DNA of 64,000 nucleotides from an uncultured Candidatus Rokubacteria bacterium (GTDB lineage Bacteria; Methylomirabilota; Methylomirabilia; Rokubacteriales; DASRDR01): assembly GCA_963812945.1 (NCBI GenBank), contig CAWEXD010000008.1, forward strand, positions 376,586 to 440,585. The letters are read 5' to 3'. Each line of letters starts with the position of its first letter. Positions within the stretch are counted from its first letter, which is position 1. Both the position numbers and the translations under genes were made by a program. Shown in pieces: positions 2,142 to 11,901 of the stretch. The notes below the pieces were generated by a model. The model made no database searches and was not told where the DNA came from. It saw nothing but the letters and a program-made list of their open reading frames with translations.

Positions 2142-3188
2142 TCAGGATCCCGCCACCGAGTAGATGTGCACCGGCTGACTCCGGGTCTTGAACTGGACGG
2201 GGCCGTGGGACTCGACGCGGAGACCGTCGCCGAGGCCGCCCCGGGTGTTCTCGTCGATGAGGATCGGCTGGCCGACGACCTTGGTGTGCGCTTCCAGGTG
2301 CGCGGCGAGGTTCACCGTGTCGCCCACGCAGGTGTACGTCACGCGCCGCTCGGTCCCCGTGAACCCGGCGACCAGCGACCCGGACGCGATCCCGATCCCG
2401 ATCCGGATCTCGACCCCGCCGCGGGCTGCCTGGTCCCGGTTGAAGCCGGCCACCAGGTCCAGCATGTCGAGCGCCGCCCGCACCGCGCGCTCGCGATGGT
2501 CCGCGCGGGGGAGGGGGGCGCCGAAGATCGCCATCAGCCCGTCTCCGAGGATCTGGTTGACGATCCCGCCCTGGCCCCCGATGGCGTCGAACATGAGCGT
2601 GTAGTAGCTGTTCAGGAGCTCGATCGTCCCCTCGGGTGACAGGACCTCGGCGATGCGGGTGGACCCCCGGATGTCGGAGAACATCACGCTGGCGTCGACG
2701 CTCTTGCCCCCCAGTGCCAGGCCGGTCGTCAGGAGCTCCTCCGCGACCTCGGCGGTGGCGAACTTCCGGAACAGCTCGCGCTGCCGGTCCCGGAGCCGCT
2801 TCTTCTCCAGGCTGGCGCCGACCCGGGCGCGGAGCAGCACCGGGTTCACCGGCTTGAAGAGGTAGTCCTCGGCGCCCATCTCGATGCACCGGGCGACCGA
2901 GTCCACCTCCTCCACCGAGGACATCATCACCACCGGGATGTCGCGGAGGCGGGGGTCGGCCGTGAGGGCCTCCAGCGCCTGGTAGCCGTCCATCTCGGGC
3001 ATCTCGATGTCGAGCAGCACGAGGTCCACCCGGCGCTGCCGGAGCGCCTCCAGACCCTCGCGCCCGTTCTCGGCGAACGTGACCGTGTGGCCGAGCTGCT
3101 CGAGCGCGCGCCCGAGGAGCAGACGGTTGACCCGGTTGTCGTCGACGACCAGGATGTCGCCGGTCTGGGCGTTACGCGGGGAGGTCAT
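2142..3188 (-). CDS. Response regulator receiver fused to a class III nucleotidyl cyclase domain
   Basis: 348 aa. The receiver is intact (VVDDN acidic pocket, LVLLD60, FKP Lys112). The cyclase domain shows VMFSDIRGST, LGDGLMAIFGAP and GDTVNLAAHLE. Its start overlaps the stop of the upstream kinase by 17 nt. Confidence 0.9.
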   Translation of the reverse strand: MTSPRNAQTGDILVVDDNRVNRLLLGRALEQLGHTVTFAENGREGLEALRQRRVDLVLLDIEMPEMDGYQALEALTADPRLRDIPVVMMSSVEEVDSVARCIEMGAEDYLFKPVNPVLLRARVGASLEKKRLRDRQRELFRKFATAEVAEELLTTGLALGGKSVDASVMFSDIRGSTRIAEVLSPEGTIELLNSYYTLMFDAIGGQGGIVNQILGDGLMAIFGAPLPRADHRERAVRAALDMLDLVAGFNRDQAARGGVEIRIGIGIASGSLVAGFTGTERRVTYTCVGDTVNLAAHLEAHTKVVGQPILIDENTRGGLGDGLRVESHGPVQFKTRSQPVHIYSVAGS

Positions 3189-9100: not shown

Positions 9101-11901
9101 TCCGGCGCCACCGGAAACGCGCGTCGGAAGGCCTCGACTCCCTCGGGTGTGAGCCCGTGGTGGGCCACGAAGTGGAGCAGTGTCCCGTCGAACCGGAAGA
9201 GGTGACAGAACTGGGCCTCGCAGAGCTGGGCCGCGCTCCGGGCGATCGTGTCGAAGACCGGCTGGATGTCGGTCGGCGAGCTCGAGATGACCCGGAGGAT
9301 CTCGCTCGTCGCGGTCTGCTGCTCCAGGGTCTCGGTGAGGTCGCGGTTGCGGACCTCCAGCTCCTTGAACAGGCGCACGTTCTCGATGGCGATGACGGCC
9401 TGGTCGGCAAAGGTCTTGAGCAGCTCGAGCTGCCGGTCGGGGAAGGGTCCGGCCTCCACGCGCGCCACGGCGATGCTCCCGATGGGGACGCCGTCGCGCA
9501 CCATCGGAACGCCCACGACGCTTTTGAAGTTCGCCGTCCTTGCCACCGCGCCGTGCCCGTAGTCCGGGTCCGCATCGACGTCCGGGACTTGCTCGACGAC
9601 GCCGCTCAGGACTGACCGAGCTGCTGCACTGGCCCTGCCTGGCGCCATGGGATAGGCACGCCGCACGGCCTCCGCCCCTTCCGGACTGAGCCCGTGGTGG
9701 GCGACGAAGTGGAGCAGTGTGCCGTCGAATCGGTAGAGCTGACAGAATTGCGCGTCACAGAGCCGCTTGGCGCTCTGGGCGATCGTGTCGAACACGGGCT
9801 GGACGTCGGTCGGCGAGCTGGAGATGACACGCAGGATCTCCCCCGTGGCCGTCTGCTGCTCCAGGGTCTCGGTGAGGTCGCGGTTGCGCGTCTCCAGCTC
9901 CTGAAAGAGGCGGACGTTCTCGATGGCGATGACGGCCTGGTCGGCGAACGTCTTCACGAGCTCGATCTGCTTGTCGGTGAAGGGCCGGACCTCGGTCCGG
10001 CGGATCATGATGACGCCGATCGCAACACCTTCCCGGAGCAGCGGCACGGCGAGGATCGTCCGGTAACCGAGCTCCTTCATCGCCCCGGAGTCAGGGAACT
10101 CGGCCAGGAACGCTTCGGCCAGGTCCTCTACGTGGACCGGTCCCCGATCGTGGGCCGCGCGCCCCACTACGGACCGGCGGCCGATGGTGAGCTGCTGACG
10201 CGCGACCGGCCGCCCTCCCCACGACGCGACGCGGTGGAGCGTCGCACCGTCCCGTTGCCAGATGTGGCCGTCGTCGGCGGCGCACAGGCGCGCCGCGTTC
10301 GCCGCGACGGTCTCTAGCACCGGCTGGAGATCCGTGGGCGACGTGCTGATGATCCGCAGGATCTCGCTCGTCGCCGTCTGCTGCTCCAGGCTCTCCGTGA
10401 GGTCCCGATTGCGGGTCTCCAGCTCGGTAAAGAGCCGGACGTTCTCGATGGCGATCGCCGCCTGGTCGGCAAAGACGCGGAGGAGCCCCAGCTGCTTGTC
10501 GGAGAAGGGATCCACGACCATCCGGAACAGGGCGATCACGCCGAGGGGCGTGCCTTCGCGGAGGAGGGGCGTCGCCACCATGGTGTGATGCCCCAGGCGA
10601 CGCTGGAGGTCGCGCCCCTCGGGGAACTCGTCCTCGGGCTCCGTGGCCAGGTCGTGGACGTGCACCGTGCGCTTCTCCACCACGGCTCGGCCGGTCACGG
10701 AGCCCCGCGTGACCGGAATCTCGAGCGCGGCCAGGCCCCCCATCTGGCGCGCGATGACGTCCGGGAACGGGCCCACGCCGGCCGCGCCGCGGAGCGTGTG
10801 GCCATCGAGCCGGAGGATCGCCACATCCGTGGCCCCGCAGAACCGCGCGGCGGCGCGGACAACCGTGTCGAGGACGGGCTGGATGTCGGTTGGAGAGCCG
10901 GAGATCGCCCGGAGGATGTCGGCGGTGGCCGTCTGCTGTTCGAGCGCCTCGGTGATCTCGCGGTTCCGCCCCTCCAGCTCCGCGAAGAGCCGACGCTGCT
11001 CGTCGGAGAGCTGGTGAAGCTCGCGGCTCATCCGGTTCATCCGACCGGCCAGGACACCGAACTCGTCGCGGTTCGGGACGTCGATGGTCGCGCTGAAGTC
11101 GCCTTTCGCGACCCGGGCGAGAAAGGCCTCGGCCTGGCGGACGGGGAGGATGAACGACCAGGACGTGACGAATCCCAGGGCGAGTGCGAGGACGATCGAG
11201 GCGGCCGCGAAGCCACCCGTGAGAAGGAGGGCGCGATGGTTGGCCGCCTCGACATTCTGCCTGAGTCGGACCATTCCGCTCTCTTCGTTCCGGACGACCC
11301 GGGTGACGAGGGTGGCGATCTCCCGGTGAAGGGGAGCGCTCTCCCCGAGGTGAAGCGCCATCGCCTCGTCGTGCTTGCCTTCCCGGATGAGGCTCCCAAT
11401 GCGCGCCACCATGGTCAGGACCTGGCCCTGGACCGCGCGAATCCGCTGGATCACCTCGCGCTCGTCGGGCGAGGCAGCCTCCTCCAGGCGGGCGAGCGTC
11501 TCGTCGAACCGGTTCTTCTCGCGAAGGATATTCTCGATGGTGGCGTCGTCGCGGAGGAGCAGCGCATTCCGCGTCACGTTCATCTGCAGGCCGAGGGTCT
11601 GCTCGATCTGGCGAGACGCGTCGACCCGCTCGCGGGCCTGGTCAAGGAGCCGGCTCTGACGGGACACGCTCGTGATCGTCCGGAGGCTCAGCGCCCCCAT
11701 CGCGATGAGGAGCAGGGCGATGAGGAGGAACGCGCCGAGGAGCTTCGCGTGCACCGACGCGCGGATGCCGGCGACACGCCGGACCAAGAACCCGAGGGGC
11801 GAGCGGGGCAGGAGGAGGCGCGGGATCCGTTCGCTCGGGCCCGGCGTCGTGTCGGGGGCCGGCGCGGCGGCCTGGACGGGTTCTCTCTCGTGTGCGTGCA
11901 T
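3172..11901 (-). CDS. Giant hybrid sensor histidine kinase: TM-sensor-TM-HAMP, 10 GAF, PAS, HisKA, HATPase, 2 receivers, Hpt
   Basis: 2,909-aa ORF. HAMP: [39 protein letters not shown]. Nine GAF units each begin with LEQQTAT.EILR.ISSSPTD.QPVFD and end with [23 protein letters not shown]; a tenth GAF is divergent. PAS: [14 protein letters not shown]-box: [15 protein letters not shown]-box: [10 protein letters not shown]. Receivers: [10 protein letters not shown]...[11 protein letters not shown] and [10 protein letters not shown]...[11 protein letters not shown]. Hpt: [12 protein letters not shown]. Confidence 0.92.
5600..10944 (-). repeat. Intragenic tandem coding repeat (10 GAF units, about 537 bp each)
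   Basis: The Phe codon of the FADQ linker motif recurs on the plus strand at 6184, 6721, 7258, 7795, 8332, 8872, 9409, 9946 and 10471. Spacings are 537, 537, 537, 537, 540, 537, 537 and 525 bp. A conserved ~100-nt block (ggcgatgacggcctggtcggcgaaggtcttcag...) recurs at each junction. Confidence 0.9.

Follow-up and report, generated by a model that had tools for sequence, protein, structure and literature searches.

What a single signalling protein does with ten GAF domains in a row is the question raised by a locus in an uncultured Candidatus Rokubacteria bacterium (assembly GCA_963812945.1, contig CAWEXD010000008.1). The window, meaning the whole stretch of 64,000 nucleotides (nt) that was analysed, encodes on its minus strand (3172..11901) a transmembrane hybrid histidine kinase of 2,909 amino acids (aa), in which the GAF array lies between a membrane sensor and the kinase core. 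Our favoured reading, held with moderate confidence, is that of a membrane-bound multi-GAF hybrid kinase whose array acts as a segmented helical spine, sums inputs, and passes the result by phosphorelay to a cyclase encoded by the next gene.

Domain architecture of the kinase

The open reading frame (ORF) list and translation show a single uninterrupted reading frame of 2,909 codons from ATG to stop. Pfam domain calling on the translated ORF bears out the domain order read from the letters alone in the initial annotation of this DNA, namely transmembrane segment (TM), periplasmic helical sensor, TM, HAMP, ten GAF domains, PAS, HisKA, HATPase, two receivers, and Hpt. By hydropathy, TM1 (aa ~53-73), the periplasmic sensor (aa ~74-224), and TM2 (aa ~225-247) occupy 11161..11745; here, as for all features of the kinase, the strand is minus. 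A match to 4HB_MCP_1 at aa 49-202 is weak (E=0.0038, under the curated cut-off). HAMP follows at aa 247-297 (11011..11163; 5e-8). Beyond the array lie the PAS domain (aa 2112-2219; 5245..5568; 3.4e-14, also modelled by AlphaFold2), HisKA, or DHp (aa 2235-2300; 5002..5199; 4e-22), and HATPase_c (aa 2347-2462; 4516..4863; 1.1e-30). Response_reg matches two stretches (E=4e-45). Receiver 1 (aa ~2486-2594; 4120..4446) has the characteristic DD, Asp, Thr, and Lys, and receiver 2 (aa ~2629-2743; 3673..4017) has its best Pfam stretch at 2631-2743. The Hpt domain (aa 2816-2896; 3214..3456; 1.9e-13) ends the series. Pfam and motif positions together supply each part of a phosphorelay kinase: His2245 in the H-box SHEIRTPLN, the HATPase_c domain, acceptor residues Asp2537 and Asp2679 in the first and second receivers, and His2849 of Hpt in the motif HSLKS.

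All ten repeats are GAF domains, as the initial annotation supposed. Three Pfam families, GAF (PF01590; 6.2e-164), GAF_2 (PF13185; 2.4e-171), and GAF_3 (PF13492; 7e-114), each match ten separate stretches above the curated threshold, and AlphaFold2 models of units 5, 6, and 10 have GAF folds with core pLDDT of about 85-95. A linker motif or near variant begins at aa 477, 652, 831, 1010, 1190, 1369, 1548, 1727, and 1906, with a degenerate copy at aa 2087, and this spacing sets the unit length at 175-181 aa. Unit 1 (aa 296-476; 10474..11016), delimited by Pfam, motif spacing, and the unit alignment, was not assigned a core type. Motif spacing and core typing together define unit 2 (aa 477-651; 9949..10473; type B), unit 3 (aa 652-830; 9412..9948; type C), unit 4 (aa 831-1009; 8875..9411; type C), unit 7 (aa 1369-1547; 7261..7797; type I, with a variant linker), unit 8 (aa 1548-1726; 6724..7260; type E), and unit 9 (aa 1727-1905; 6187..6723; type I). 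Core typing and AlphaFold2 models define unit 5 (aa 1010-1189; 8335..8874; type R), unit 6 (aa 1190-1368; 7798..8334; type G), and unit 10 (aa 1906-2086; 5644..6186; terminal type F).

The array is unique sequence

Pairwise identity between the ten units is 28-77% in protein and 65-82% in DNA. The closest pairs are units 3 and 4 (73%) and units 7 and 9 (77%). The initial annotation described nine near-equal units followed by a divergent tenth. The tenth is indeed divergent, but it is not alone in this, as unit 1 has only 35-48% identity to the others. No DNA tandem was detected in the kinase gene by Tandem Repeats Finder; the repetition is confined to the protein sequence. Exact repeats within the gene reach 41 nt at most, a length that would not mislead an assembler. 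Together with the 65-82% DNA identity of the units, these results make the array unique sequence and not an assembly expansion.

That an assembler expanded or joined a smaller number of real units is therefore hardly credible, even though the repeats are 537 nt long with conserved linkers, the source is probably a metagenome, and similarity to the closest syntenic relative (below) is patchy. Besides the divergence of the units and the shortness of their exact repeats, the reading frame is undisrupted across 8.7 kb, and arrays of 10-15 units are known from megabase long-read contigs, a complete chromosome, and cultured isolates.

At linker positions where two units have the same residue, 31% of codons differ, and 69% are the same compared to 59% expected from codon usage. 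Linker conservation is thus maintained on the protein rather than by recent copying. Gene conversion was considered as a source of linker invariance and set aside on the same 31% figure.

A large family of multi-GAF kinases

Relatives were collected by searching a protein collection of 5.8 billion clusters. Among 8,000 candidates scored, 3,747 reach E<=1e-10, and many are 2,000-3,939 residues long with the same Pfam families. Units in these proteins were counted with a hidden Markov model made from the window's ten units. The best 120 database relatives have 5-19 units, with more than ten in 55 and 19 in five. An exhaustive profile search of 1.84 billion cluster representatives finds 85,767 proteins at E<=0.001, including 13,764 at E<=1e-30; the best 150 of the 85,767 have 5-18 matched stretches each. 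The array of ten had been described as extreme, and this copy-number survey contradicts that description. The kinase is an ordinary member of a large, uncharacterised bacterial family and no outlier.

A survey of species-representative genomes returned 568 stretches coding for relatives, with best-segment identity never above 78%. The closest are in metagenome-assembled genomes of Rokubacteria/Methylomirabilota, including contigs of 1.6 Mb and 2.1 Mb that encode ten units each. Further relatives occur in Betaproteobacteria, Chloroflexota, and Rhodobacterales. Cultured carriers include Variovorax rhizosphaerae, with 15 units in 3,696 aa, a Ruegeria sp. with 11, and a Tateyamaria sp. with 9.

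A standard helical connector between GAF units

The 1,144 units from the window protein and 120 relatives were compared by MAFFT alignment and an identity matrix. Mean identity is 65% for linkers and 35% for cores, which agrees with the original description of a near-invariant linker joining strongly differing GAF cores.

The helical nature of this linker is supported by structure prediction. A monomer AlphaFold2 model of units 5-6 with flanking linkers, made from a 34-sequence alignment of the window protein and database-hit fragments (mean pLDDT 87), shows two GAF folds with one continuous 53-residue helix between them. It runs from the final helix of the first GAF through the linker into the opening helix of the second. 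A second monomer model, covering GAF10, PAS, and DHp (mean pLDDT 75), has continuous helices at the GAF9-GAF10, GAF10-PAS, and PAS-DHp junctions. Because the modelled junctions are all continuous helices, the connection from HAMP to the kinase appears to be helical at every junction. Junction helices of ~40-53 residues alternate in these models with globular GAF cores of ~125 residues, so that the spine is segmented rather than a single coiled coil of 1,800 residues. The earlier proposal of a continuous coiled-coil rod of about 1,800 residues therefore stands as regards its helical junctions and fails as regards the single rod; pairing of the helices as a coiled-coil dimer is suggested by their heptads.

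Linker length follows a strict rule. Across the 1,336 linkers of close relatives, the spacing from the end of the RLF motif to QQTAT takes only three values, 8, 15, and 22 residues (269, 1,051, and 16 cases, respectively). The same three spacings account for 798 of 800 linkers from 150 independent cluster representatives, or about 2,100 linkers overall. From QQTAT to QPVF the spacing in linkers of close relatives is invariably 14. Whole-unit length in relatives, unlike the heptad-stepped linkers, varies from 164 to 191 residues. This quantisation by heptads is the strongest new evidence that the connector may form a phase-sensitive coiled coil. The best-conserved linker columns are the a/d positions, F-L-N-L-L-Q-x-L; the invariant Asn of 'RN' occupies an 'a' position, and Q-Q-T fills c-d-e ten residues further on. 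Solvent-exposed positions are fairly conserved too. The HAMP output helix continues in sequence straight into the same linker motif, which indicates that the linker serves as a general connector.

The most similar element described previously is the S-helix (PMC1592074), likewise a helical connector of ~40 residues between signalling domains; in both, an 'a' position is occupied by Asn, a polar c-d-e triplet with Thr as its third residue follows ten residues on, and conservation peaks at a/d. The triplet in the kinase linker is usually QQT, with QRT and RQT as minority forms (QRT, for example, in EQRTAT of unit 6), where the S-helix has ERT. Residues E14, R16, and E23 of the S-helix correspond to Thr in the kinase linker, whose e and g positions are Thr and not Glu or Arg. 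Since its signature differs from ERT, we call the linker S-helix-like and do not count it as a member. Anantharaman, Balaji and Aravind (2006) stated that conservation of inter-GAF coiled coils is poor (PMC1592074), which is untrue of the present family. Dependence on heptads also has a precedent. In engineered and natural multi-sensor kinases (YF1, YHF) linker length matters by heptads, and two serial sensors integrate signals (PMC6798134). Those proteins contain one or two PAS/LOV sensors, whereas the window kinase has ten GAF units and a linker fixed naturally at three heptad-spaced lengths.

GAF core types and their relation to known sensors

Arranged by core type, the window array reads -BCCRGIEIF, where the dash stands for unit 1. 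Core types recur in 10-75 of the 120 relatives, and in 75 of them type F closes the array and occurs nowhere else in it. In GAF domains the ligand pocket is lined by the strand 1-2 and helix 3-4 regions. In these regions conservation is 0.43 overall and 0.70-0.72 within type, a pattern that fits a type-specific function, as judged from alignments.

A passive role for the array, in which only the periplasmic sensor perceives a signal and ten ligand-free GAF domains carry it onward from HAMP or merely set a distance, has to be weighed at this point. No ligand-binding signature was recognised, linkers are much better conserved than cores, and the HAMP output helix leads directly into the linker motif, all as a relay or spacer would have it. 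However, cores are conserved within types over many proteins (0.70 against 0.43 overall), which implies functions specific to each type. The syntenic relative described below has seven units although its sensor (aa 1-295) is 98.9% identical in DNA to that of the window kinase, so that a fixed array length is not needed. Many relatives, e.g. P0001, have no HAMP or transmembrane sensor among their Pfam families and yet have long arrays. We regard a purely passive array as unlikely.

The units 5-6 model was compared by Foldseek with solved structures. Its best matches are PDE2A (3ibj), CyaB2 (1ykd), and the GAF-PHY regions of Cph1/Cph2, these at probability 1.00, and PDE5/6. The tandem GAFs of PDE2A, PDE5, and PDE6 and of CyaB1/CyaB2 share the fold and the arrangement of two GAFs on a long connecting helix (3ibj, 1ykd, 1mc0, 3lfv; E about 1e-16). 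They are likened to the kinase also as dimeric regulators of a C-terminal catalytic domain, if the kinase is a dimer as its heptads suggest. The PDE and CyaB proteins have two GAFs rather than ten, at 11-17% identity to the kinase units. The kinase differs further in its histidine kinase phosphorelay output and in its near-invariant, heptad-quantised linker motif.

These matches bring up a further explanation, namely product feedback as in CyaB1/CyaB2, in which cAMP or cGMP from the downstream cyclase would be bound by at least one of the GAF units. The best fold matches are cyclic-nucleotide-binding tandem GAFs, and in 63 of 80 loci the receiver-cyclase gene lies next to that of the kinase. 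Against this, identity of the units to the PDE and CyaB2 GAFs is just 11-17%, and the NKFDE signature (N-K ... F-x3-D-E) was not seen in the unit alignment and consensus, which were read by eye and not given a dedicated motif scan. In its place the units have 'R.E.GPF(S/T)D.Q' (consensus 'R...GPFSD.Q'), with no NK and no F-x3-DE. Product feedback is accordingly rated as distinctly improbable.

Phytochrome and cyanobacteriochrome kinases likewise run a helical spine through GAF-type domains into DHp (matches 8w26, 4bwi, and 5i5l). No PAS_2, PHY, or phytochrome family is present among the 18 Pfam families matched in the window kinase, which sets it apart from phytochromes in domain content. A nearly invariant Cys of the units lies in helix 2 (RLC). 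The host of the window kinase is not a cyanobacterium, and the relatives belong to Methylomirabilota, Betaproteobacteria, and Chloroflexota. Arrays in the family extend to 19 units; cyanobacteriochromes are known with up to about seven GAFs. For cyanobacteriochromes, tandem GAFs at regular intervals on coiled-coil linkers have been described (PMC6798134). What sets the present family apart is the combination of non-photosensory arrays of 5-19 GAFs, a near-invariant S-helix-like connector that comes in three lengths one heptad apart, GAF cassette types that recur, and a conserved receiver-cyclase partner.

A sister subfamily (P0035, P0057, P0061, P0068, P0070) lacks PAS or Hpt. In its arrays GAF type A strictly alternates with variable types and type L comes last, as in the type string ODADADAQAEASAGAL of P0068. 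The strictness of this alternation suggests a two-GAF super-repeat as the working unit.

Array turnover in a syntenic relative

The relative P0002 is encoded on a JGI contig, here called L081, that has the window's gene order: GSDH, DctP, kinase, receiver-cyclase, and DUF2868, followed in L081 by a DUF3482 GTPase gene. Flanking DNA is 86-100% identical between the two. Its kinase has 7 GAF units where the window has 10. Units 1-4 of L081 correspond to window units 1-4 at 93-99% DNA identity, and L081 unit 5 pairs with window unit 7 (88%). L081 unit 6 has no counterpart in the window, and window units 5, 6, and 8 have none in L081. The terminal units are 79% identical in DNA and the C-terminal half of the gene 94%. 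Similarity drops within the linker at aa 1021-1060, the left breakpoint, and returns near the PAS-DHp helix. Type strings of other relatives show units gained, lost, and reordered ahead of conserved ends such as ...ECKF. The comparison with L081 and the type strings suggest exchange of cassettes at the connectors.

It is possible, and we put it forward tentatively, that the arrays are a natural plug-and-play sensory system drawing on a dozen or more conserved types of GAF cassette. Recombination inside the standard linker would reshuffle these types and add or remove them, and the fixed heptad phase would keep any combination signalling.

The similarity to L081 is patchy. Over window 10280-13035 the DctP gene, the intergenic region, and the first ~540 kinase codons are 99-100% identical, while genes neighbouring this stretch are 86-95% identical and window ~13333-13910 just 44-56%. 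The pattern suggests either that related populations recombined recently or that mixed strains were assembled into a consensus.

A receiver-cyclase as the proposed output

The gene following the kinase (2142..3188, minus strand) encodes a protein of 348 aa with a receiver (Pfam Response_reg, 2e-29) and a predicted class III nucleotide cyclase domain (Guanylate_cyc, 4.3e-22). The two genes overlap by 17 nt at the kinase stop. In 63 of 80 related loci from several phyla the kinase gene is followed immediately by a homologue, and the receiver-cyclase is the probable phosphorelay target of the kinase. Its closest solved relative is Synechocystis Cya2 (PDB 2w01). Catalytic residues were examined in an alignment of 30 orthologues. 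In the window cyclase the Asn and the two Asp residues that bind metal are intact. Where Lys or Glu would specify the purine it has Gln, as do 23 of the 30, and the second specificity residue is Asp.

The kinase core, receiver, and Hpt align with those of the hybrid kinases TorS (1.9e-146), BarA (1.2e-130), and ArcB (6.7e-117), and the class that includes BarA, TorS, ArcB, and LuxQ probably shares the same His-Asp-His-Asp relay logic. Scores against the corresponding NCBIfam equivalog models stay below their cut-offs in every case (TorS 489.6 vs 676.5, BarA 437.3 vs 890, ArcB 391.6 vs 838, LuxQ 356.6 vs 1200), so that the kinase is not an orthologue of any of the four. It differs from the BarA class in having two receivers, a multi-GAF input, and a receiver-cyclase as partner instead of a transcription factor.

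Gene context bears also on the idea that the array is an interaction scaffold, whose GAF units, rather than sensing small molecules, chiefly serve protein binding or the building of larger assemblies such as clusters or filaments. Conservation that extends to exposed linker positions speaks for it, and the alternation of one type with variable types in the sister subfamily suggests paired modules. Yet the receiver-cyclase is the only conserved partner gene beside the kinase, and the Foldseek matches are all sensors of small molecules or chromophores. A scaffold is, in our estimate, quite unlikely.

Proposed mechanism

In the reading we favour, the array consists of a variable number of GAF modules placed between an N-terminal input, here the TM-periplasmic helical sensor-TM-HAMP region, and the PAS-DHp-CA core. 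One standard helix would link successive GAFs, and these helices would pair as a coiled coil in a parallel homodimer. The dimer would then be a segmented helical spine flanked by GAF lobes, resembling PDE2A, CyaB2, and the phytochromes. A ligand or partner at any GAF may alter the twist or register of the helices that enter and leave it, and such changes, summed along the spine, would set the balance of kinase and phosphatase activity. Phosphoryl groups would pass from His2245 to a receiver Asp, to Hpt His2849, and to the receiver of the cyclase, controlling synthesis of cAMP or cGMP. GAF types would serve as exchangeable cassettes, with the standard connector holding any combination in phase.

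Several observations weigh against this reading. No ligand is known or predictable for any GAF unit, and NKFDE was not seen, as noted above. NCBIfam has no model for the GAF unit. A three-unit fragment searched by sequence against chains in the PDB gave only marginal matches (E ~1e-3) and no close solved structure. The parallel dimeric coiled coil is deduced from the heptad pattern, as the models are of monomers; isolated junction helices in them have low to moderate pLDDT (39-92), and some prokaryotic tandem GAFs, such as those of CyaB2, dimerise in antiparallel fashion (PMC1592074). The three linker lengths could have arisen from just two ancestral 7-residue events. The comparison of 7 with 10 units is drawn from two assemblies, both of which may be metagenomic. 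The transition-state Arg of the cyclase, present in 24 of the 30 orthologues, is His in the window and in 5 of the 30. Between ligand integration and relay, both of which the initial annotation had offered, the evidence leans to a modular integrator.

Promoter region and neighbouring genes

An intergenic region of 195 nt (11902-12096) separates the kinase from a divergent gene for a DctP-type TRAP solute-binding protein. It contains two sigma-70-like sites where 0.4 are expected in shuffles. The first, a consensus match to TTGACC-18-TAGCAT with TG (11929..11958, minus strand), lies 28 nt upstream of the kinase ATG, and the second, also a consensus match, is at 11992..12020 on the plus strand. 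A 16-nt tandem repeat (GGGCGGACATCCTCTCT, 1.9 copies) is present at 11962-11993.

On the other side, the cyclase gene is followed by a gene for a DUF2868 protein (window 558-2114, minus strand), for which NCBIfam has no model; L081 next has a gene with DUF3482/MMR_HSR1 for a GTPase. Wider synteny is common only to the window and L081. In the 80 genome loci, no GSDH or DUF2868 neighbours were found, and the DctP matches were weak paralogues only. Because the DUF2868/GTPase pair was not found beside the kinase in these other 80 loci, it is probably outside the module.

An ORF of 886 codons at 14755-17415 (minus strand) has no Pfam match and overlaps a plus-strand ORF of 538 codons at 15802-17418, whose position matches that of the L081 gene for AICARFT/IMPCHase (PurH). 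High GC content is the most likely source of the minus-strand ORF, which would then be spurious. No tRNA genes and no Rfam families at the gathering threshold were found within the 64-kb window.

Significance

The literature describes tandem PAS/GAF sensors that are set at regular intervals on coiled-coil linkers of heptad periodicity and can integrate signals; for LOV/PAS kinases it is established both that coiled-coil linkers depend on heptads and that sensors in tandem integrate signals (PMC6798134). The tandem-sensor coiled-coil principle is thus already known. The multi-GAF kinase family itself we have not found described; a search of the literature on multi-GAF, GAF-array, and giant GAF kinases, the QQTAT motif, and GAF domains in Rokubacteria returned no account of it. 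Sensor kinases with one to three PAS/GAF modules joined by coiled coils are understood in principle, but how signals pass or combine across many modules is not. The present family offers natural arrays of 5-19 GAF units, a single standard connector that changes length by whole heptads only, and a conserved cyclase output that is readily measured, so that long-range, multi-input signalling through a helical spine becomes open to direct experiment. For the engineering of multi-input sensors, the connector is a part that already exists. If cassettes are indeed shuffled as proposed above, close strains would have different sensory programmes feeding into one conserved cyclic-nucleotide output.

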